Shown one piece after another: positions 33,847-44,166 of a stretch of DNA of 64,000 nt; position 1 is the first letter of the stretch, and the number at the start of each line of letters is the position of its first letter. The stretch comes from Alphaproteobacteria bacterium. Lineage in GTDB: Bacteria > Pseudomonadota > Alphaproteobacteria > RF32 > CAG-239. The position numbers and the translations under genes were made by a program. Location of the stretch: the NCBI GenBank assembly GCA_017460085.1, contig JAFUBQ010000007.1, positions 1,046 through 65,045 of the forward strand, read 5' to 3'. Under the pieces are notes generated by a model that was given only the letters and a program-made list of their open reading frames with translations, had not been told where the DNA came from and did not search any database.

Positions 33847-34749
33847 TTATAGCAAATACATGAAGAACATATATACGAACGGAGCTGCAAAAATCAATCC
33901 GTCTACCCTATCAAACACTCCACCGTGCCCAGGAATGAGTTTTGAAGAATCTTTAACTCCAACCAAGCGCTTAATTGCCGATTCCACTAAATCACCAATT
34001 TGCGCCAACACCGCAATAACCGCAGCGCAAACAGCATAAAACAACTGACTGTTCACAGTCCATTCTTGATGAATATTTAGTGCTTTGTATGAAAATGAAA
34101 TATAGCGGAATTTACTGAAATCATAAAAAGGCATACCCATAACTTCAACACAAATATACATAAAGATAATACTTACCGAAACCGCAAGCAAAATACCGCC
34201 CATTAAACCTGACCAAGTTTTGTTCGGACTAATTGTCGGAGCCAATTTCGGACCGCGCAAATTACAACCGACAACCAAGCCACCTATATCCATACTCCAT
34301 ACAATGAGGAAGAACCACATCACCATCATAAAGCTATAGTTGTAGCGCGGGTCAAAACTTCCTTCACTAGGGTCAAACAACAAATACATCCAAACCAAAG
34401 CGCCGATACCAACTGAAATATATGGTACGCCAAGCGTTAACAATTTGCGGTGTTTTTCCTCGTTAGCAATAAACCAAGTGAAAAACGTTACAATTGCAAT
34501 CATCGGCAAAGCCAAATCCGTACTCCAAACAGATATAGCCAAACTTATCATATATGCAGTAACGTAATATGATGTTGTTTCCGCTTTTGAGAGCATTGTT
34601 GCCCACTCCCAAGCAAGCAAACCACCAACAACAATTGCCAGTGCCTCAATAAACGGACTGCCCAAATAAAGTGCTTCCAAAGCAATCGGAATCATCACAA
34701 TTGCCGCTAATATGCGTTTTGTAATAGCCCCAAATTTACGACTTACCAT
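33847..34749 (-). CDS. cdsA: Phosphatidate cytidylyltransferase
   Basis: ISPNKTWSG, GDLVESAIKR..GVKDS..IPGHGGVFDRVD. Confidence 0.96.
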   Translation of the reverse strand: MVSRKFGAITKRILAAIVMIPIALEALYLGSPFIEALAIVVGGLLAWEWATMLSKAETTSYYVTAYMISLAISVWSTDLALPMIAIVTFFTWFIANEEKHRKLLTLGVPYISVGIGALVWMYLLFDPSEGSFDPRYNYSFMMVMWFFLIVWSMDIGGLVVGCNLRGPKLAPTISPNKTWSGLMGGILLAVSVSIIFMYICVEVMGMPFYDFSKFRYISFSYKALNIHQEWTVNSQLFYAVCAAVIAVLAQIGDLVESAIKRLVGVKDSSKLIPGHGGVFDRVDGLIFAAPFVYMFFMYLL

Positions 34750-35440
34750 ATCTTCTCTCCCTTGTCTGATAATTTTCAACAATTTTCATCAGTTCTTCTT
34801 TTGTAAAATCCGGCCACAATGTCGGTGTAAAATAAAGCTCCGAATATGCCGCCTGCCATAATAAATAGTTGCTGATACGCATTTCACCGCTGGTGCGAAC
34901 TAGTAAATCAGGTTCCGGCATACCTGCGGTATAAAGCGCATCTGCAAACATTTTTTCATCAATATTTTGCACTGAAATTTCGCCATTTTGCACTTTTTGT
35001 GCCAAACAGCGCGCCGCTGCCGCAATTTCCTGTCGCCCGCCATAGCTTAATGCCACGCATAACGTTACATCGGTATTATTTACGGTTTGCCGTTCAATTT
35101 CCGACATTTTGGTTCTAATATCCTCGGCCAGCATTTGCCGCTCACCAATAAAAACAATGCGGGCATTATTTTCTTGCAGCTCCTTAAAACCACGCTCCAA
35201 ATATTGCCGCAGCAAATCCATTAAAGCTGCAACTTCTTCGGGTTCACGCTGCCAATTTTCGGTAGAAAACGCATACACGGTCATATATTTTATGCCTGCA
35301 GATTTTGCTGCTTTAGCAATTTCTACCAAAGTTTCCGCACCTTTTTTATGCCCTGCTGCAATCGGGAAACCGTGCTTTTTGGCCCAGCGCCGATTGCCGT
35401 CCATAATAAAAGCAATATGTGTCAAAAACTTTGTCGTCAC
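34736..35440 (-). CDS. uppS: Undecaprenyl diphosphate synthase
   Basis: HIAFIMDGNRRWA, YAFSTENW, PDLLVRTSGEMRISNYLLWQ. Confidence 0.97.
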   Translation of the reverse strand: MTTKFLTHIAFIMDGNRRWAKKHGFPIAAGHKKGAETLVEIAKAAKSAGIKYMTVYAFSTENWQREPEEVAALMDLLRQYLERGFKELQENNARIVFIGERQMLAEDIRTKMSEIERQTVNNTDVTLCVALSYGGRQEIAAAARCLAQKVQNGEISVQNIDEKMFADALYTAGMPEPDLLVRTSGEMRISNYLLWQAAYSELYFTPTLWPDFTKEELMKIVENYQTRERRYGKS

Positions 35441-35455
35441 GTTACTATGTCCTTT

Positions 35456-36016
35456 TTATACCTGCATAATATCTTTTTCTTTTGCGGCATATAAATCGTC
35501 AGCCTTTTTAATGGCTTCATCGGTCCATTTTTGAATGTCGTTATTATAGCGCTTTTCTTCATCTTCTGAAATTAACGCATCTTTTTTCATTTTTTTAACT
35601 TCGTCCATTGCATCGCGGCGAATATTGCGAATGGCAATTTTCCCCTGCTCTGCATATTTGCCGGCAACTTTTACCAGCTCTTTGCGGCGTTCTTCGCTCA
35701 GCGGCGGAATCGGAATACGAATAGTTTGGCCGTCGTTCATCGGATTCAAACCCAAATCACTTTCCAACAGAGCTTTTTCCACGCTTTTTAACAAACTTCT
35801 GTCCCATACACTAACCGATAAAGTGCGAGCATCAGGCACACCGATTGTTCCAACTTGATTAAGCGGAGTCATACTGCCATATGCATCAATCATAATCCCG
35901 TCCAGCAAACTGGCATGCGCACGACCGGCACGCAAACCGGCTAAATCGGCTTTTATATTATCCAAAGTTTTTTCCATACGAGCATTTGTATCTGTTTTAA
36001 GTTGATTATAATCCAT
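35456..36016 (-). CDS. frr: Ribosome recycling factor
   Basis: LRAGRA, SDLGLNP, PPLSEERRKELVK, IRNIRRD. Confidence 0.97.
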   Translation of the reverse strand: MDYNQLKTDTNARMEKTLDNIKADLAGLRAGRAHASLLDGIMIDAYGSMTPLNQVGTIGVPDARTLSVSVWDRSLLKSVEKALLESDLGLNPMNDGQTIRIPIPPLSEERRKELVKVAGKYAEQGKIAIRNIRRDAMDEVKKMKKDALISEDEEKRYNNDIQKWTDEAIKKADDLYAAKEKDIMQV

Positions 36017-36028
36017 TTTAACCTCACT

Positions 36029-36739
36029 TTATTTTATTATTGTATTTTTAATTTCACCGCACACGGCTTTAACCAGCGCCTCAGGTTCTTTCAACGCAAA
36101 AATCATCACCGGAAGTTTATTATCGGCCGCCATAGAAATTGCTGCCATATCCATCACATTCAAATGCTTAGCCAAAACATCGGCATAAGAAATATTTTCA
36201 TAGCGTTCCGCATTAGGGTTGCTGCGCGGGTCATCGCTATAAACACCGTCAACCTGCGTTGCTTTTAACAAAACATCACAATGCATTTCAATGGCACGCA
36301 GTGCTGCGCCGGTATCGGTGGTAAAATATGGGCTGCCGGTTCCGCCGGCGAAAATAATCACCGAACCTTGTTCTAGGTCTTGTAAAGCTTTTTCAAACTG
36401 ATATGTTTCACATGCCTGCGGCACGGCAAATCCGGAATATATTGTTGTCTTAACCCCTTTTTTCAATAAAGCCGCTTTCAAAGCCAGTGCATTCATCACC
36501 GTTGCCAACATGCCAACTTGGTCGGCCACACTGCGGTCCATATCGGCCGTAGCATTTTTAGCACCGCGGAAAAAATTGCCGCCACCAACCACAATGCAAA
36601 CTTGAACCCCAAAAGCAACAACGCGGGAAATTTGCGTTACTAATTCCCTTATCACATTTGTATCTATGCCGGTTTTACTTTCTCCCGCCAATCCTTCACC
36701 GGAAAGTTTAAGTAAAACTCTTTTAAACTTAGGTGCCAT
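36029..36739 (-). CDS. pyrH: UMP kinase
   Basis: RVLLKLSGE, GGGNFFRG, GMLATVMN, PYFTTD, VDGVY..DP. Confidence 0.97.
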   Translation of the reverse strand: MAPKFKRVLLKLSGEGLAGESKTGIDTNVIRELVTQISRVVAFGVQVCIVVGGGNFFRGAKNATADMDRSVADQVGMLATVMNALALKAALLKKGVKTTIYSGFAVPQACETYQFEKALQDLEQGSVIIFAGGTGSPYFTTDTGAALRAIEMHCDVLLKATQVDGVYSDDPRSNPNAERYENISYADVLAKHLNVMDMAAISMAADNKLPVMIFALKEPEALVKAVCGEIKNTIIK

Positions 36740-36844
36740 AAATTCCTCTTTGTTTTTGCAAAAACTACCTGTATGTTAGCGATTTTATTTTCTTTGTCAT
36801 TATTATTTTACAGTTTTTCAGCAGAATTTTTTTATAAATTTCAG

Positions 36845-36873
36845 TTGACAGCAATAACAAAATGTTGTAGCAT
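36845..36873 (+). promoter_or_regulatory. Sigma70-like promoter of the paralog cluster
   Basis: TTGACA (36845)-N17-TAGCAT (36868); the predicted TSS near 36880 coincides with the start of leader copy 1. Confidence 0.65.
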
Positions 36874-36880
36874 TTATATT

Positions 36881-37029
36881 AGAGCGTTGGTTAGCGCTTG
36901 CTGCCTGCCTTTAGGCAAATCCGGATGGAATAACCGCTTAAATTTATAAAAATAGTTGAAACTCTTAGCAGAAGGGATTTTTGACAGGCAGGCATCAAAA
37001 GTTTATATCCCGCTTAAGGAGTTAAAGCT
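36881..37029 (+). ncRNA. Conserved structured 5' leader, copy 1 (unknown motif)
   Basis: Shares ordered blocks AGAGCG..TTAGCGCTTGC, CCTGCC, AGGCAAATCCGGAYGGAATAA, AAGGGA, AGGCAGGCAT, TCCCG and AAGGAG with 38390-38533. Confidence 0.7.
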
Positions 37030-38379
37030 ATGACTGATACTAATTCCCTTAATTATGAAATTATCGAGCAACTGTTTCAAAACAGTGCGTGTTTAACGTA
37101 TAATCCTTTGGAACCGATGGCGGCATGGCAATATGCCAAAGAACTGCAGCAAAATTTTGAAAAAGAGCATAACTTAAAATATTCGCGCATCTGTTCAAAA
37201 TTTGCTAAAATGCGGCAAGGTCAATATAATGCCCGTTTTCACTATTTTGCCGATGGCACACTGGTGCATTGCTCAGAGCCGCAAAGTTTTTCTGAAAATG
37301 AAACAAATCGCTATGGAACGGAAGATTTAGAGAGAATTATGACGGCGCTCAAGATTCGCCGCTATCCGGTTAATAAAATTTACGGCCCGCAAAATCAAAT
37401 GGATGTGTTTTATTATTCCGATTTTTTACGCTACATTTCCTCACAGGCATTGTTGAAATATTCATACAAAGAAGACTTATATGTTGAGCCACTGCCCAAT
37501 AAAGAAGATTTCGTGCGCGAATGTTTTGCCAACGGCAATATTTTGCTAACCGCCTCAAAAGATGAGTTATTACCGCCATCTTGCCGTGAGTTTATGGCTT
37601 TGTTTGCCGACGGCCGTTATTATGTTTCTGAAGAATATCGCAGCCATTTAGGAACAAAAAATTATGGTAAAGTCAGCCGTTTTGATGCTGATTATTTGTT
37701 GCATTATTGCGTTATGGCCGAAGAATATATTCCGCAAGACTATCTTAATGCTCTTTATAAAGAAGCCGAAAAATATGAGTGGTTTTCTTCTGCTGAAGAA
37801 ACAATGGCAAGAATGCCTAAGCGCACAAATGTTGATGAATTAGTTAAAATGAACAAATACATTGATGATTTATTTAATAACCGCAATTGTTTAACGGTGG
37901 TCAATCCGGATATAAATTCAACTTTTATGTCGCCTGATTTTCAACAATATGCTGTGTTTTCCGATGGTTTAGTGGTTGCCGTATATCATGATGAAGATGA
38001 CAAGCCGTTTATGAAATCGCTCAAAAAATATTTTCCGGATTTAACTTTTCGTTTTGAAAAAATATCAAAGGAATATATGGAACAGCTATACCGCCGCTTG
38101 CCGGAGTTTCAAAAAGGCGCAACGGTAATATATGTTGAAATGCTTAAGCAAAAAGCTCGAAAATTAAAGCGAATGACTGATTTAACGCACATTGAAGCGC
38201 TTGATGTCGTGGCACAAATGGCCGGTTGGCAAAGTTGGAAAGCGGTTAAAATTGAAGATGAAGCGCACGCGCGGGAATTGATTGACGCCGAAAAATGGCG
38301 CAAAAATATGGCGGCAAATTTTAATGCCGAAAATCCGCTGGCGGAAGAATATCGCCGCTATTTGAAGCACCGCAGATGA
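37030..38379 (+). CDS. Hypothetical protein: three 'LT...F(A/S)DG' repeats plus a C-terminal helical domain (Glyoxalase_8/DUF5623-like from memory)
   Basis: Repeat cores HYFADG, ALFADG, AVFSDG; C-terminus LKQKARKLKRMTDLTHIEALDVVAQMAGWQSW; AAGGAG SD. Confidence 0.8.
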   Translation: MTDTNSLNYEIIEQLFQNSACLTYNPLEPMAAWQYAKELQQNFEKEHNLKYSRICSKFAKMRQGQYNARFHYFADGTLVHCSEPQSFSENETNRYGTEDLERIMTALKIRRYPVNKIYGPQNQMDVFYYSDFLRYISSQALLKYSYKEDLYVEPLPNKEDFVRECFANGNILLTASKDELLPPSCREFMALFADGRYYVSEEYRSHLGTKNYGKVSRFDADYLLHYCVMAEEYIPQDYLNALYKEAEKYEWFSSAEETMARMPKRTNVDELVKMNKYIDDLFNNRNCLTVVNPDINSTFMSPDFQQYAVFSDGLVVAVYHDEDDKPFMKSLKKYFPDLTFRFEKISKEYMEQLYRRLPEFQKGATVIYVEMLKQKARKLKRMTDLTHIEALDVVAQMAGWQSWKAVKIEDEAHARELIDAEKWRKNMAANFNAENPLAEEYRRYLKHRR

Positions 38380-38389
38380 TTGATGGATA

Positions 38390-38533
38390 AGAGCGCCGAT
38401 TAGCGCTTGCATCCTGCCCATAAGGCAAATCCGGACGGAATAATCATTTTTAAAACACAACTTTAATCAAAGGGAAAACAGCAATGAGGCAGGCATTGCA
38501 TATCATTCCCGTATTTTAAAAGGAGTATGTGTT
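38390..38533 (+). ncRNA. Conserved structured 5' leader, copy 2
   Basis: Same ordered blocks as copy 1, with a compensatory change in the GGGAW/WTCCC stem. Confidence 0.7.
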
Positions 38534-39940
38534 ATGAATACGCAAAATTTATTAGAAAAATTATTTAACGAAGGCAACTGCTTAACGTATGACTGGAAAT
38601 TTAATGCTCGCCGCAAGACAGAGAAAATGTGCGAGCAATTTATGCTGGAAAATCCACATAGTTTTTGCTTTGTGCAAAATAATAAAGTGCCGCTGCCACT
38701 ATTGAAACACACTGATTTTCAATATTTTTCCAATGGTGCACTGGTTATTTGTATGTGGCCGCAATGTGCCGATGAAGTTACTGAAAAAGCACGAAAAATT
38801 TTAGGATTGCACGGCTATGTTATAAAAGATGTTTATGCTCCGCAAAACAAAGAAGAATGGCAAGATTACTTCAAATTGCTTATTGATATTTGCGATAAAA
38901 CCAGAGAATTACCGGTTAATGATGAAGATTTAACGCTTCGCACCTTTAATTCGCCGGCCGAATTTGCTGACTATTGTTTTAACGGCAGCAATGTTTTACT
39001 CACTGCCTCCAAAGATAAAATTTTTGAGCCGAAATATCGGAAAATTCTGGCATTATTTAGCAACGGATTATATATGGTTGATGAACAATATAAGCATAGT
39101 GATAATTTTTACGGCGATGTGGAAACTAAGTTTTTTGAAGATTGTGTTTGTAATGAGCCGATGCTGCAACCGCTTTATGTGCCGCAAATTTATCTGCAGG
39201 CGCTCTATCAGCGAGCTAAGCAATATAATTGGTACAGTTCGCCTGAAGATGCAGCAAAAAATATGCCGCAAGTTAAAGATTCCGAGCTGGAAACGGCCGC
39301 CCAATATGCCGAAGATATTTTGCCAAACCGCAAGTGTGTCAGCATATTAACACCGCGTATAATTTATAGAGATATATTGCTTGATGAGATTTTAACATCT
39401 CCGGATTATCATCGCTATGTGTTGTTTGCTGACGGTAAATTAGTGCTTTCACAAAAATATTATAGCAATGAAAGAAAACAAAAGCATCTGTTAGAAGATT
39501 TGAAACGGAGTTTTCCATATATGCAATTTGCGGTGGAACTTGTGCCGGATTATTGCATAGATTATCTATATCAAGAAATTTATAAACGGCAAAAAAGTGC
39601 CCGCGATATATATTTGGAAATGATGCGGCAAAAGGCAATGCTTATTAGCACGGTGTTTGGCGTTCCGGTGGTTTTGGCGCAAGATGCGGCGGCACAGTTT
39701 GTCGGCTGGAAAAATTGGCAAGAAATGCAAACCGTAACAATTCCTCATGCCCGACATTTAATTGCCAACCAGCAAAATTTAGATAGACGCATGGAAAAGA
39801 ATGGTTATCAAAATGACGTTATTTATAACGCCATGGCTTATTTTGACCTATTGAAAGCGCAAAATATTCCATACGAAAATTCACAAGCCGTTTATCGGCA
39901 ACTGAAAGCCAATTTGGCAAATGCTAGAGCCAATAAATAA
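38534..39940 (+). CDS. Paralog 2 of the repeat-domain family
   Basis: LFNEGNCLTY, LLTASKD, LALFSNG, SPDY..YVLFADG, IYLEMMRQKA..GWKNW are collinear with 37030-38379. Confidence 0.8.
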   Translation: MNTQNLLEKLFNEGNCLTYDWKFNARRKTEKMCEQFMLENPHSFCFVQNNKVPLPLLKHTDFQYFSNGALVICMWPQCADEVTEKARKILGLHGYVIKDVYAPQNKEEWQDYFKLLIDICDKTRELPVNDEDLTLRTFNSPAEFADYCFNGSNVLLTASKDKIFEPKYRKILALFSNGLYMVDEQYKHSDNFYGDVETKFFEDCVCNEPMLQPLYVPQIYLQALYQRAKQYNWYSSPEDAAKNMPQVKDSELETAAQYAEDILPNRKCVSILTPRIIYRDILLDEILTSPDYHRYVLFADGKLVLSQKYYSNERKQKHLLEDLKRSFPYMQFAVELVPDYCIDYLYQEIYKRQKSARDIYLEMMRQKAMLISTVFGVPVVLAQDAAAQFVGWKNWQEMQTVTIPHARHLIANQQNLDRRMEKNGYQNDVIYNAMAYFDLLKAQNIPYENSQAVYRQLKANLANARANK

Positions 39941-39951
39941 CGGAGATTATA

Positions 39952-40818
39952 ATGATAAATGCAATTATAACGCAAAAAGATGCGGTTGACGAACTGTATG
40001 AGCGCGGAAAAGTTTGCATAACAGCGCATAAAGAGGCTGATATTGATAAAAAATACCGTCCATATTTAGCCTTGTTTGCTGACGGCACATTTTTAGTAGA
40101 TGAGCGTGCTAAGAACGATATTGTTTTGCAAAATTCAGTGCTGGAATTTTATAAAAATTATCCTTCGCAAAAAAGGTTATTGAAACAATATGTTTCGCCG
40201 CAGCTGCTCAAAGCGGTTTATCATCGCGCGCAAAATTTTGACTGGTATTTGCCGCAATATGACATTCCGACAAATTTAAGCACTGCCGACCGGCAAAAGC
40301 TGCAACATTTTTTAAAACGTATGCTGCAGCGGCAATGTTTGAGCATTACCACACTGACAACGCCGGAGTGGTTTCGCTTTTATTCACCCGATAAAGAAAA
40401 ATTTGCCCTTTTTAGCGGCGGAAGATTTGCAGTGTCGCAAAACAATTTGCAAAAAGATGAACTGCTACGCAATATCAGCACACTATATCCGCAAATTGAA
40501 ATGATTGAAATTGTGCCGGAATATTATATTAATGCCATATACGAAAAACTTTTGTATGTAGAACCAAGCGCGCGTGAAATATATATAGGATTGGTGCAAA
40601 AAAAATTGGCTGAGCGGCTGAAAATAGGTTACAATGAAGCTCTCAAAGTGATGCAAAATCAAACTTACGGATGGCGGAAATTGTTGTTTCTTTCAGAACA
40701 AAACGCGCGCTCTATGATATATAGCGACTATGTTGAAAATTGTTTTATGCGTTCTGATGCAGCCTTTGCCGCACAAATGTTTGCAAAAAAAGATTTTCAT
40801 ATCGGCGTTTTTATGTAG
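39952..40818 (+). CDS. Paralog 3 of the repeat-domain family (two repeats, lacks the first)
   Basis: VCITAHK, YLALFADG, NFDWY, SPDKEKFALFSGG, AREIY..YNEAL..GW. Confidence 0.8.
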   Translation: MINAIITQKDAVDELYERGKVCITAHKEADIDKKYRPYLALFADGTFLVDERAKNDIVLQNSVLEFYKNYPSQKRLLKQYVSPQLLKAVYHRAQNFDWYLPQYDIPTNLSTADRQKLQHFLKRMLQRQCLSITTLTTPEWFRFYSPDKEKFALFSGGRFAVSQNNLQKDELLRNISTLYPQIEMIEIVPEYYINAIYEKLLYVEPSAREIYIGLVQKKLAERLKIGYNEALKVMQNQTYGWRKLLFLSEQNARSMIYSDYVENCFMRSDAAFAAQMFAKKDFHIGVFM

Positions 40819-40932
40819 TTATTGCATAAAAACCCCTAACGGCAACTTTGTAAAAAAGAAAGGATATAAGTTTTTTGCTTGCATTTTGCTGAATTTTATC
40901 AATGTGCGGTTTTGCATTTTGAATGAAAAGAA

Positions 40933-41382
40933 ATGAATAATTTCAATGATGAAGGCATGGGCGTGGCAACCGCGGCTGTGACTTTAAATTCAGATAATTA
41001 TGGCATGGGACGCGATGCTACACGGCAATTGCAAAAAGACTTGCAACAACGGCATCCTTTGGTTTATGGCACATCGGAATTTATCGGTGCGATGACCACG
41101 CCGCTACATTTGGTTAAAGATGCCACTTTTGCCAATAAGGCTTTTAATGCGGCAACCGATACCCTCAATGCTTCAGCCGGATATGCTGAAAATTGGAACG
41201 ATTTCGGAACAAATATGCTGGTGAACGGAATAGCAAATGCAGCAGGATTACAAACCGAATACCTACCAATATTCAGAGCTGCAGGCAGACCTCTTGTTCA
41301 GTGGGGTAAAAAGGCTTTTAAGCAAGGTATAAATTTTTCTGCTGACAAAGCTAAAGATATGTATTATCCTAACGAAGATTAA
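40933..41382 (+). CDS. Hypothetical Ala/Gly/Asn-rich protein, possibly a fragment
   Basis: 149-aa ORF with a weak SD; no family recognised. Confidence 0.55.
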   Translation: MNNFNDEGMGVATAAVTLNSDNYGMGRDATRQLQKDLQQRHPLVYGTSEFIGAMTTPLHLVKDATFANKAFNAATDTLNASAGYAENWNDFGTNMLVNGIANAAGLQTEYLPIFRAAGRPLVQWGKKAFKQGINFSADKAKDMYYPNED

Positions 41383-41404
41383 AAGGTAGCAAAAGGAACA
41401 GAAT

Positions 41405-41752
41405 ATGGAAAAAGAGGTTATACTGATTTTTATCAAAAAAATACTGCTGAAAATTATATACTGGTTTGTATCTTTACTGATTTTGTGTAATGCTTTTATT
41501 ATTTTGGGCTTACATTTAGTTGCGCCTTTTTTTCCAATTCTGTTTTTATTTAATTTTTGTTTTTGGTTGGGACATCCTTTGTTTGTAAAATATGTTTCGA
41601 AAAAAAAGTGGTTTGAATGCACTAAAGATGATTATTTAGCATTAAAATACATTTTATTTCCTTCGTTAATAATGGAAATAATGGTAATAATCTATTATTA
41701 TCCAAAATTAGAACTTGCGATAAATGCTTTTATAGAAATGACCGGCGGATAA
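41405..41752 (+). CDS. Small AT-rich membrane protein
   Basis: Two to three hydrophobic segments; AAGGA SD. Confidence 0.65.
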   Translation: MEKEVILIFIKKILLKIIYWFVSLLILCNAFIILGLHLVAPFFPILFLFNFCFWLGHPLFVKYVSKKKWFECTKDDYLALKYILFPSLIMEIMVIIYYYPKLELAINAFIEMTGG

Positions 41753-41857: not shown

Positions 41858-42005
41858 CTGTCGGCGGGTGTTCTGCCGATGGAGTATCGTCGCTCCTTCT
41901 AAGAAAAACTCCTCTCTAAGGGGAGCCGGCTCAATATATTGAATAAGCCGGACTGAATCTTAGACAGTGACGAACTCCCCTTGCTTTGAGAAAAGCAAGG
42001 TTTTT
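41858..42005 (+). ncRNA. Candidate multi-stem RNA / attenuator ending in an intrinsic terminator
   Basis: Nested stems GGAGT/ACTCC, TCGTCGCT/AGTGACGA and TCTAAGA/TCTTAGA enclose CTCCTC/GGGGAG and CCGGCT/AGCCGG hairpins; terminator CCTTGCTTT/AAAGCAAGG plus T run; G-U pairs favour the + strand. Confidence 0.65.
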
Positions 42006-42044
42006 GTTTTAAATTTTGCAAAAACTTTAAGGGAGTTCTATAAT

Positions 42045-42269
42045 ATGAGTACGAATAATTTAATGAGCAAAGAAATTTTAAAAGATATATGTCCGCAGCT
42101 GAAACAATTGCGGCTTGAGCGCGGTTTAAGCCTTGAAGAAGTGCAGGCATTGGCGCACATCAGCCATAAATTGCTCAGACGGGTTGAACAAAATAAATGC
42201 CTGCCTTTCAGTTGCCTGAGAAAATTGCTTGATTTTTATGGTAAAAAAGTAAAAATTTCGCTGGAGTGA
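42045..42269 (+). CDS. Small XRE-like helix-turn-helix protein
   Basis: LKQLRLERGLSLEEV...LRRVEQ pattern; AAGGGAG SD. Confidence 0.75.
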   Translation: MSTNNLMSKEILKDICPQLKQLRLERGLSLEEVQALAHISHKLLRRVEQNKCLPFSCLRKLLDFYGKKVKISLE

Positions 42270-42397
42270 TAATACCTTTTTTTATAACGCTGTTAATTTT
42301 TTTTATTTTGCGTTTTTTTATCGTTCTTAAAAATAGGGTTGCAATTTTTTTTTATTTCGGCTACACATTGATAAGCAAAATTTGGAGAATAAAAAAA

Positions 42398-43036
42398 ATG
42401 AATACATTATTAATTTGCGCCCTAGGCGGCTATTTAGCGGGTTCAATTCCGTTCGGCTTGGTGTTATGCTATCTTTTCGGATATGGCGACATTCGCAAAA
42501 TCGGCTCCGGCAACATCGGCGCCACCAATGTTTTACGCACCGGTAACAAATGGCTGGCTTTGCTTACGGTAATTTTAGATGCCTTAAAAGCCGGTTTGGC
42601 GGCCTATGCGGCTTATAAAATAGTTCCGGCAACACCGGTTATGCACTTGTGGGGGCTGAATGCACCGCTCAACACGGTTGCATCGCTTATTGCCGGCACT
42701 TGCGGTGTGTTGGGGCACAATTTTCCGATTTGGCTCAAATTTAAAGGCGGGAAAGGTGTTGCTTCAGCCTTTGGTTTCATTTTATTAACTCAGCCGGCTG
42801 TGGCTTTAGTGGCTTTTTTCATTTGGCTGGTTATGGCGTTTGCTTTTCGCTATTCATCATTTGCGGCCATTACGGCTGCAGCGGCAATGCCGTTGATTGC
42901 TTATCTGATGTGTCCGCCGATATATGCCGTGTTTTATAGTGCGCTTGCTTTGCTGGTTGTTGTGCGCCATCATGCCAATATCAAACGCTTGCTTAACGGT
43001 CAGGAAAGCAAAATCAGCTTTAAGAAAAAAGGCTAA
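42398..43036 (+). CDS. plsY: Glycerol-3-phosphate acyltransferase
   Basis: YLAGSIPFG, DIRKIGSGNIGATNVLR, GHNFPIWLKFKGGKGVA, RHHANIKRL. Confidence 0.96.
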   Translation: MNTLLICALGGYLAGSIPFGLVLCYLFGYGDIRKIGSGNIGATNVLRTGNKWLALLTVILDALKAGLAAYAAYKIVPATPVMHLWGLNAPLNTVASLIAGTCGVLGHNFPIWLKFKGGKGVASAFGFILLTQPAVALVAFFIWLVMAFAFRYSSFAAITAAAAMPLIAYLMCPPIYAVFYSALALLVVVRHHANIKRLLNGQESKISFKKKG

Positions 43037-43044
43037 AACACTTA

Positions 43045-44166
43045 ATGTCCGATTTAATTGAAATATTGCAAATCATTAGCACAGACGGCATCGGTCCGGT
43101 AACATTTTATAATGCGCTTAAAAAAGGCGGCAGTGTGGCAGAGGCTATGAACATTATTGCCGCTAAAAAAACGGTTTACAGCCGCTCTCAGGCGGAAGAT
43201 ATTGTGGCGCAAGCACAAAAAATCGGCGTAAAACTGATAACTTATCAGGATAAAGAATATCCCGAAGGCTTAAAACAAATTAACGATGCTCCGCCGATTA
43301 TATATGCGCTGGGCAATATAGATTTATTGCATCATCCGGCGGCGGTGGCAATTGTTGGAGCGCGCAATGCTTCCATTGCCGGCCGCAAAATGGCCTCGCG
43401 CATTGCATATGACTTAACGGAACGCGATGTTTTGGTGGTTTCAGGTATGGCACGCGGTATAGATTGCGCGGCGCATAAAGGCGCATTATATGCCAAAAAC
43501 CGCCGCGGACCGACTATTGCCGTTTTAGGCACCGGCGTTGATGAAATTTATCCGCCGGAAAACGCTGATATTTATCATCAAATTGCTGAGCAAGGCTTGC
43601 TTATAAGCGAATTTACGCTCGGTTTGGCGGCGCAAATGTCTAATTTTCCGCGCCGCAACAGGCTGATTGCCGCTTTAACCGCCGGCACATTGGTTGTGGA
43701 AGCATCTTTGCATTCGGGCTCTCTGATTACCGCTAAATTGGCGGCTGAACATGGCAAAGAAGTTTTTGCCGTTCCCGGCTCCCCAATAGAAAGCCGTGCT
43801 GCCGGTCCGAATTATTTGATAAAACAAGGTGCATTATTAACAGAAAACGCCGATGATATACTTAATACATTAAGTATAACCCAAAATCGGCAAATAAAAA
43901 ATTATCAGCTTGAGTTGATAGGTCTTGACAAACCGCAAAATAAGGCAAATATTTCAGAACATAAAATTGTGGAGCCGGCAATAGTTAAATCACCAACCGA
44001 AAAAGTTCCTCTTTTAGAACTGATTAGTTATGAAGGTGTTGACATTGACGAGCTTCTGCGCAGCAGCGGTTTGGAGCAGGCCGATTTCTTTATGCAAATT
44101 TTAGATTTGGAATTCGGCGGCAAAATTGAGCGACAGGCCGGTAACAAAGTGGCGCGGATAAAATAG
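43045..44166 (+). CDS. dprA: DNA processing protein DprA
   Basis: AIVGARNAS, VSGMARGID..AH, NFPRRNRLI, SGSLITA, EVFAVPG. Confidence 0.96.
   Translation: MSDLIEILQIISTDGIGPVTFYNALKKGGSVAEAMNIIAAKKTVYSRSQAEDIVAQAQKIGVKLITYQDKEYPEGLKQINDAPPIIYALGNIDLLHHPAAVAIVGARNASIAGRKMASRIAYDLTERDVLVVSGMARGIDCAAHKGALYAKNRRGPTIAVLGTGVDEIYPPENADIYHQIAEQGLLISEFTLGLAAQMSNFPRRNRLIAALTAGTLVVEASLHSGSLITAKLAAEHGKEVFAVPGSPIESRAAGPNYLIKQGALLTENADDILNTLSITQNRQIKNYQLELIGLDKPQNKANISEHKIVEPAIVKSPTEKVPLLELISYEGVDIDELLRSSGLEQADFFMQILDLEFGGKIERQAGNKVARIK

Follow-up and report, generated by a model that had tools for sequence, protein, structure and literature searches.

A probable start-site-masking leader RNA precedes genes for tandem pilus-ATPase-like domains in uncultured gut Alphaproteobacteria

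The DNA analysed here is a 64,000-nt stretch of an assembled alphaproteobacterial genome of the order RF32, family CAG-239 (GenBank assembly GCA_017460085.1, contig JAFUBQ010000007.1, positions 1,046 to 65,045 of the forward strand), hereafter called the window, and our subject is a module at its positions 36845-40818, in which a putative promoter is followed by three open reading frames (ORF1 to ORF3), the first two of which each stand behind a copy of one structured leader RNA. The host genome comprises 1.59 Mb in 23 contigs and is rated 100% complete. A search of ORF1 against this genome recovered ORF2 (32% identity, E 1.9e-52) and ORF3 (24% identity, E 9.9e-19), and hidden Markov models (HMMs) of the single domains resolved the order D1-D2-D3-C in ORF1- and ORF2-type proteins and D2-D3-C in ORF3, D being a repeat domain and C a C-terminal helical domain. 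By these comparisons the three proteins are paralogs, which confirms the set of paralogous, collinear reading frames that an earlier note on this DNA had placed here. The features of the module are as follows, with bit scores from the covariance model R1 described below.

36845-36873, plus strand: sigma-70-like promoter, TTGACA-17 nt-TAGCAT, 10/12 hexamer matches
36878-37029, plus strand: leader 1, structured 5' untranslated region of ORF1, R1 165 bits
37017-37032, plus strand: Shine-Dalgarno (SD) sequence AGGAG and ATG of ORF1, predicted to be base-paired in helices P4b and P4a
37030-38379, plus strand: ORF1, 449 aa, D1-D2-D3-C
37045-37395, plus strand: ORF1 D1, repeat resembling the pilus-ATPase N-terminal domain
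37477-37809, plus strand: ORF1 D2, repeat resembling the pilus-ATPase N-terminal domain
37834-38109, plus strand: ORF1 D3, repeat resembling the pilus-ATPase N-terminal domain
38113-38373, plus strand: ORF1 C-terminal four-helix domain
38387-38533, plus strand: leader 2, intercistronic, before ORF2, R1 69 bits
38534-39940, plus strand: ORF2, 468 aa, D1-D2-D3-C paralog
39952-40818, plus strand: ORF3, 288 aa, D2-D3-C paralog with degenerate C domain and its own GGAG

Leaders 1 and 2 align as blocks of identity separated by diverged spacers, leader 2 beginning 8 nt past the ORF1 stop codon, and ORF3 follows ORF2 after a gap of 11 nt with no leader between them. The leader alignment, the R1 matches and the 11-nt gap thus bear out the arrangement described in the earlier note, with ORF1 and ORF2 behind the same structured leader and ORF3 without one. 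A degenerate 35-nt pattern derived from the best leader block matched twice in the window and in none of 100 shuffles, and these two copies are the only ones in the whole genome; a candidate third copy on another contig (G000:C5) was rejected as a chance 24-nt match within a coding region. The earlier note had named homologs in related genomes without the leader as one observation that would speak against its reading. In the upstream DNA of full-length homologs (30 loci) a leader was found before nearly all of them, even at 31-40% protein identity. A second full-length paralog at one locus (L023) has none, nor has any of five ORF3-type genes (0/5), and at another locus (L014, 1321-1477, genome G170) the ORF1-type leader keeps its 3' half and has its 5' domain swapped for unrelated sequence, the downstream ORF2-type leader being intact. 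Where the proteins are only 31-40% identical the leader 5' domain remains 65-82% identical, which, together with the covariation presented below, supports the earlier suggestion that selection acts on the RNA.

To follow the leader across genomes we used R1, a covariance model of the nested helices built from 18 ORF1-type leaders in an alignment made by MAFFT only (A3). It gave 50 matches in 43 loci, and in 151 genomes of the same family it gave 31 matches in 29 genomes, one or two per genome. Thirty of these 31 matches end exactly at the start codon of a member of the protein family. The downstream gene was recognised by phmmer at E <= 4e-53 in 26 cases, and the other four encode a 162-aa one-repeat protein, a truncated protein with a repeat and two ORF2-type proteins, family membership behind the leaders at L015 and L068 having been assigned from reading of the locus and from the domain HMMs. 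The 31st match (43 bits; L069 1501-1609, corresponding to G091:C8:2437-2545) has no gene behind it; its 5' domain is degenerate, a GC-rich terminator-like hairpin and a T run follow, and it lies between a comEC-like gene and prfC. Relatives of this genome (L034 and L037) carry the module at what seems to be the same upstream flank, and since the solitary copy is located where related genomes carry the gene, we regard it as a leader relic. When one genome from each of 185,579 species was scanned for an exact pattern, 25 loci emerged, all in metagenome-assembled genomes of Alphaproteobacteria from animal gut or rumen, in which R1 identified 26 leaders, every one of them (26/26) directly 5' of a family member; this set and the 151-genome set partly cover the same species. 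The 107 homologs of ORF1 in a large protein collection all come from uncultured Alphaproteobacteria, are unnamed or labelled 'hypothetical' and contain no Pfam domains. A match to ORF1 at E<=1e-5 occurs in 63 of 201 genomes of the order; about 37 of the 63 hold true family members (best E <= 2.5e-16), the remainder showing a weak match through the pilus ATPase treated below.

Scanning 36000-41500 on both strands against Rfam 15 with permissive filters yielded no riboswitch, leader or ribozyme match at E<=10 and only three chance-level matches (E 4.3-9.8), one of them to a CRISPR direct repeat at 36936-36962, within leader 1 and on the other strand. The earlier description of the leader as undescribed therefore stands as far as Rfam 15 is concerned, and full-text literature searches listed nothing on this leader RNA or on the protein family. 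A structured leader that masks an SD sequence is a known kind of element; this particular RNA family is absent from Rfam and from the literature searched. We consider it highly probable that the leader is a genuine, new, cis-acting structured element that masks the start site.

The leader, about 150 nt long, is predicted to form six nested helices (P1, P3, P4a, P4b, P5 and P6) and two pseudoknots (PK1 and P2). Its 5' domain would consist of hairpin P1, PK1 and the small hairpin P3, and its 3' domain of the stacked helices P4, P5 and P6. PK1 joins the P1 loop GGUUA to a downstream UAACC, and P2 joins the strand UGCCUGCC to the GGCAGGCA loop of P6, clamping the 5' and 3' domains together. The elements lie at the following positions.

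36882-86/36895-99, plus strand: leader 1, helix P1
36889-93/36931-35, plus strand: leader 1, PK1, P1 loop with downstream strand
36902-09/36987-94, plus strand: leader 1, P2, pseudoknot with P6 loop
36920-22/36927-29, plus strand: leader 1, P3
36952-57/37026-31, plus strand: leader 1, P4a
36960-66/37017-23, plus strand: leader 1, P4b, anti-SD with SD
36974-78/37007-11, plus strand: leader 1, P5
36979-84/36995-37000, plus strand: leader 1, P6
38391-95/38403-07, plus strand: leader 2, P1
38398-402/38441-45, plus strand: leader 2, PK1
38413-18/38488-93, plus strand: leader 2, P2
38430-32/38437-39, plus strand: leader 2, P3
38455-67/38514-32, plus strand: leader 2, anti-SD with SD/start region
38472-76/38507-11, plus strand: leader 2, P5
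38481-85/38495-99, plus strand: leader 2, P6

In a covariance-model-guided alignment of 49 distinct leaders, 93.0% of the cells were paired, as against 40-49% when the partners were slid by 1-3 columns; 37 of the 46 pairs showed changes on both sides, and the observed values were reached by none of 500 shuffles. PK1 was paired in 98% of cells, with GC-to-AU exchanges in 18 of the 49 leaders at two positions, and P2 in 95.8%, with double changes at three positions. As neither pseudoknot was part of R1, these two counts were not fitted to the model. A structure-blind MAFFT alignment of 35 leaders (A2) gave pairing of 97.7% for P1, 99.4% for PK1, 94.6% for P2 and 100% for P3, the slid controls giving 32-46%. 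Where the 5' strand of P2 varies, compensation was found in the P6 loop; the local hairpins that could form instead of P2 (GCC-loop-GGC or UGCC-loop-GGCA) fall in invariant columns and offer no evidence either way. Around 40 unpaired or loop positions are conserved at a level of at least 80-95% and are the same in ORF1-type and ORF2-type leaders. The minimum-energy fold of leader 2 has a z-score of -2.95, and none of 200 shuffles was as stable.

In helix P4, an upstream anti-SD strand (AACUCUU and its flanks) pairs with AGGAGUU and, farther out, with the first bases of the AUG. P4b was paired in 88.6% and P4a in 78.4% of cells over the 49 leaders, figures that include ORF2-type rows misaligned in this part, and leader 2 masks its SD and start region likewise by a different sequence. 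One G-U pair of P4b is conserved, and the pair 125-200 is open in 18 of 42 leaders. With SD and AUG both sequestered in P4, translation is expected to be blocked in the conserved fold. A scan detected no terminator-like sites on the plus strand inside leader 1 or leader 2, and this, together with the position of leader 2 just behind the ORF1 stop codon, indicates translational control, cistron by cistron. An alternative hairpin, in which the anti-SD would pair with the SD-like 5' strand of P5, was only 75% paired and showed few double changes.

Upstream of leader 1, the promoter that the earlier note had placed at 36845 (TTGACA-17-TAGCAT) recurs at an unchanged distance before orthologous leaders, as a TTGACA and a TAnnnT box at equal spacing upstream of ORF1-type leaders in other genomes. 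A site scan found sigma-70-like sites to be no more frequent in this region than expected by chance; the support for the promoter is therefore comparative. The transcript is predicted to start a few bases 5' of helix P1. Metatranscriptome contigs from two runs of one bovine-gut sample span 36910-37218 and 38154-38552 at 88-99% identity to the window (most at 90-99%), the latter bridging ORF1, leader 2 and ORF2, which is weak evidence for expression and for control at translation rather than transcription, as the library may contain DNA. The missing contig cover at 36747-36893 carries no evidential weight.

The relationship of the repeats, which the earlier note had not recognised, became apparent within the same genome. 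Residues 158-258 of ORF1 match a 571-aa ATPase of the GspE/PilB family (36% identity, E 3.1e-6), and the D2 HMM matches residues 49-135 of this ATPase at E 1.1e-13, in front of its Pfam T2SSE domain (residues 159-560, E 1.4e-64). The ATPase gene belongs to the following cluster, which lies outside the window.

G000:C1:61000-71037 (L071), minus strand: type IVb pilus cluster with TcpQ-like protein, secretin, PilO2 (PAP_PilO), 499-aa coiled-coil protein, 571-aa ATPase and T2SSF

Clustering with TcpQ, a secretin, PilO2 and a T2SSF platform protein identifies the 571-aa protein as a type IVb pilus ATPase, and on these matches the repeats are homologous to the N-terminal domain of the cell's own pilus ATPase. 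This N-terminal domain occurs in 149 of the 151 family genomes and in all 134 of good quality (134/134), hence the pilus is core and the leader-gene module accessory. An AlphaFold2 model of ORF1 made with 55 homologs was well defined (predicted local distance difference test, pLDDT, 91.7; predicted template modelling score 0.86), and its six top structural matches in a VIA search were all N-terminal domains of type II secretion system (T2SS) or type IV pilus (T4P) ATPases (5htl, Z 6.7; 3jc8, 6.3; 7lkm, 5.6; 2d28, 5.3; 6f8l, 5.2; 2bh1, 5.0). The matched structures are those of MshE, PilB, PilB-N with PilZ, XpsE-N, PilF and EpsE-N1 with EpsL; the alignments cover 61-77 residues within ORF1 273-363, that is D3 only, at Z values below the safe level of the tool. 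A Foldseek search of whole ORF1 against the PDB gave no match at E<=0.001. Modest as these Z values are, the top structural matches form a consistent set (the EpsE N1E domain bound to EpsL, XpsE-N, PilB-N with PilZ, the C-terminal subdomain of MshEN and the GSPII domains of PilF) and accord with the sequence homology to the organism's own ATPase. Unlike in T2SS/T4P ATPases, the repeats stand two or three in tandem without an ATPase and are fused to a helical C domain. Shorter natural forms have the composition D1-D2-C (342 aa) and D-C (162 aa). In known systems the N-terminal domain of T2SS/T4P ATPases docks the ATPase on its membrane partner, and for this reason the most plausible role of free tandem copies would be that of adaptors or competitors at the pilus platform. 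When the cytoplasmic residues 1-178 of PilO2 were modelled in complex with ORF1 146-362, the score was 0.00, which gives no verdict, neither for nor against such contact. In another genome (G095:C28:18196-19080), a 758-aa open frame contains two consecutive matches to the pilus-ATPase N-terminal domain; it may be an ATPase with a duplicated N-terminal domain, possibly an intermediate towards free tandem arrays.

The C-terminal pattern is clearest in ORF1, as the earlier note had observed, the C-domain HMM matching at 1e-42 in ORF1, 5e-29 in ORF2 and 5e-5 in ORF3. Folded alone, the domain forms four helices (pLDDT 95.7). The C domains of ORF1 and ORF2 share 25% identity, the first helix is conserved and rich in Lys/Arg, and K12, A15, H26, A29 and L30 are nearly invariant. 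No complete protein encoded behind a leader lacks the C domain, not even the minimal 162-aa one-repeat protein, so that the co-occurrence of leader and C domain for which the earlier note had proposed a test was indeed found. The first two helices (LKQKARKLKR...HIEALDVVAQMAGWQSW) align with N-terminal parts of PF20066 (Glyoxalase_8) and of the NCBIfam entry NF004629, PRK05973 'DNA helicase' (positions 8-58, E 3e-5). Of the likeness to Glyoxalase_8 and DUF5623 proposed in the earlier note, the former part holds for a segment: 25 of 30 C domains match PF20066 at E<=1 (best 2.8e-5), over profile positions of about 7-52 of 143 only, and the cut-off of 23.7 bits was missed by ORF1 (13.3 bits) as well as by its C domain alone (17.3 bits). 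The latter part did not hold, as PF18536 (DUF5623) gave no match in ORF1-3 at E<=1. The ORF1 C domain would accordingly be placed outside both PF20066 and PF18536 on sequence grounds. It differs from PF20066 in sharing only some 45 of 143 positions, in lacking a glyoxalase fold and in the C-terminal location of the module, and from both PF20066 and PRK05973 in two further helices that are restricted to this protein family.

A profile search of 1.8 billion representative sequences likewise found the full C domain only in this protein family, and its positions 8-50 alone recurred at the N-terminus of many unrelated proteins (431 matches at E<=1e-3). Twenty-three of the 150 listed hairpin matches were scanned, among which 13 had Glyoxalase_8 over the segment, three had DUF5623 downstream and one had a VapE-like domain. 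For the C domain alone, Foldseek returned no match in the PDB at E<=0.001, the VIA structure search returned generic helical matches only (best Z 5.1), and a profile search of PDB sequences found nothing below E 0.07. Candidates from the Protein Atlas with scores of 0.81-0.82 were not retained other than as leads.

When one genome from each of 150 other alphaproteobacterial families was searched with R1, a single genome (G225) gave a match.

L097 1501-1665 (G225), minus strand: divergent leader, R1 46 bits

Read by eye, this leader keeps P1, PK1 (GAUUG/CAAUC) and P3 with compensating changes, and P2 is compensated as well, UGGCUG pairing with the hairpin-loop sequence CAGCCG. The gene behind this leader encodes an orphan 195-aa protein without a repeat domain, in which residues 21-52 show a weak match to the C-domain HMM (E 2.6e-4, one-sequence search); its upstream neighbour, of the same orientation, is a TadE-like pilus gene. 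Relatives of the 195-aa protein were sought without success: no other genome of the order, no related locus and no homolog was found, and the association of leader and protein in G225 is consequently a single case.

Taking this evidence together, we favour, at a probability of roughly 0.4, the reading that the leaders are cis-acting translational switches operated by a small ligand, which we rank slightly above autoregulation by the proteins. The conserved fold would be the OFF state, in which docking of the 5' domain on the P6 loop would stabilise P4-P6, and undocking would free the SD. The weakest step of this scheme is what governs docking: it would be an effector whose evolution is independent of the proteins, most likely a small ligand (a second messenger, for example) recognised by those nucleotides of the 5' domain that are unpaired and hardly vary. 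ORF1 and ORF2 would be controlled separately on one transcript, with ORF3 translationally coupled to ORF2, and the regulated proteins would be made only once the switch opens. As they carry arrays of the type IVb pilus ATPase N-terminal docking domain, ORF1-3 would most likely act as modulators or adaptors of the pilus machine. An effector that does not coevolve with the proteins is suggested by an RNA core far better conserved than the proteins, by the same unpaired leader nucleotides being present although the C domains of ORF1 and ORF2 have diverged so far, and by the occurrence of the helical hairpin in many organisms where this RNA was not found. The leader fold also has the size and complexity of an aptamer, and two features expected of a riboswitch are present, namely a conserved structure supported by covariation and an expression platform overlapping the SD, where P4 pairs SD and AUG.

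Compact, pseudoknotted leaders with many conserved unpaired nucleotides, a paired SD and no terminator are familiar from the S-adenosylmethionine riboswitches SAM-II and SAM-V and from preQ1-II/III, translational OFF riboswitches with an SD contained in, or clamped by, a pseudoknotted aptamer. Unlike these, the present leader is a larger, two-domain RNA with a linker that varies and a clamp between loop and strand, and all its copies stand 5' of a single protein family without a metabolic role. The c-di-GMP-I/II riboswitches for cyclic diguanylate (c-di-GMP) precede type IV pilus genes, for instance those of Clostridioides difficile, and our system is similar in combining a structured leader with proteins linked to a type IV pilus and a GGDEF cyclase in the genome, which encodes one GGDEF protein; it differs in that the leader matches neither Rfam model. 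Signalling by c-di-GMP is thus possible in this organism, and binding of c-di-GMP by the leader is pure conjecture. Among other candidate effectors, c-di-AMP was set aside, as no DAC-domain cyclase was found in the genome, and CsrA was set aside as a trans-acting binder of the GGA-containing loops, as no CsrA gene was found in the complete genome.

Several observations weigh against a ligand-operated switch. All covarying helices fit one single fold, and with a weak alternative hairpin and invariant P2-competing hairpins, switching is deduced from the architecture. Every leader copy lies 5' of one protein family (30/31 and 26/26), an association typical of autogenous protein-binding leaders, most riboswitch classes controlling several gene families, and ORF1-3, lacking any metabolic or transport function, give no hint of a ligand. 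On the protein side, the repeats reach modest scores in the structure search (Z below 7), and the Pfam family T2SSE_N (PF05157) gave no match at E<=1 in ORF1-3 or in the ATPase N-terminus. The RNA-library contigs, for their part, neither prove transcription nor exclude DNA nor define transcript ends.

The exclusive association, broken only by the relic, is an argument for autogenous control, the idea put forward in the earlier note, in which the product would bind its own leader through the basic C-terminal helical domain and lock the SD-sequestering fold, so that each paralog restrains its own production or the RNA and the protein persist together as a ribonucleoprotein (RNP). The constant presence of the C domain behind the leader and its conserved Lys/Arg-rich first helix fit this explanation, as do the decay of the leader where the gene is lost and the divergent G225 leader before an orphan protein with a weak match to the helical motif and no repeat, although that match is a single and weak case. 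Ribosomal-protein operon leaders offer a parallel, being likewise RNAs restricted to the regulated gene family that also act on internal cistrons and mask the start site. There, however, the proteins are known RNA binders and the leaders mimic rRNA or tRNA sites, whereas the protein considered here has no recognised RNA-binding domain and changes far more rapidly in evolution than the RNA. For the C domain no significant structural relative was found, be it an RNA binder or not, its helical hairpin heads hundreds of unrelated proteins, for example Glyoxalase_8-type and DUF5623-containing ones, and the leader was found in this lineage and one other genome only. Fast-evolving C domains facing a nearly invariant unpaired RNA core, and a second full-length paralog without leader at L023, are further difficulties, and we judge autogenous control to be somewhat unlikely. 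The fuller version, in which leader and product form a dedicated RNA-protein pair, the 45-residue hairpin being the RNA-binding domain and the pilus-ATPase-domain decoys setting their own level, appears doubtful to us.

An element without a dedicated ligand, either constitutive or triggered physically, as a thermometer, by opening through ribosome or helicase or by RNase processing, which would divide the cistrons and determine how stable the mRNA is, would agree with covariation that backs one fold only, SD and AUG included, with the intercistronic position of leader 2 and with a thermometer-like weak point at the P4b G-U pair and the often unpaired position 125-200. But two covarying pseudoknots and about 40 conserved unpaired positions exceed what SD masking or processing needs, and known RNA thermometers are simple hairpins, which makes this explanation distinctly improbable. 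A self-cleaving ribozyme, or a small RNA acting in trans, whose place upstream of these genes is incidental could likewise present a compact pseudoknotted fold with conserved unpaired nucleotides, and the 5' domain standing alone before a terminator-like hairpin in G091 might be taken as an example. That copy, however, is degenerate and located where relatives carry the gene, no known Rfam ribozyme family was matched, and the fold invariably stops right at the start codon, with the SD inside it, for which reasons we hold a ribozyme or small RNA to be very improbable indeed.

The leader represents a well-supported orphan regulatory fold from an uncultured alphaproteobacterial family of animal gut and rumen, in a system of one RNA and one protein family with two copies in one operon and natural compensatory variants. 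Were the effector a small molecule, the leader would found a new riboswitch class; were it a protein, a widespread helical module of unknown function would gain an RNA-binding role, and a dedicated RNA-protein pair would give this orphan module its first function and define a new class of autoregulatory RNP. The copying of a pilus-motor docking domain into free-standing tandem arrays suggests an unrecognised layer of control of the type IVb pilus, and no description of a protein family that joins tandem pilus-ATPase N-terminal domains to a helical C domain was met in Rfam or in the literature searched.

In this genus the module lies between pyrH and plsY, and by reading of the translations its flanks appear to be ordinary housekeeping genes, with cdsA, uppS, frr and pyrH upstream on the minus strand (33847-36739) and plsY and dprA downstream (42266-44166). 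In two related genomes (L025 and L026), plsY and dprA come immediately after a single repeat gene, hence the extra genes 3' of ORF3 (40933-41752 and 41967-42269) are an insertion specific to the present genome. They include a pair of ORFs encoding 149 aa and a membrane-like protein of 115 aa, which has a paralogous pair on contig C5 (63% and 59% identity). A 100-aa ORF, also 3' of ORF3 and a putative helix-turn-helix protein as read from its sequence alone, has at least six paralogs across the genome at 40-83% identity.

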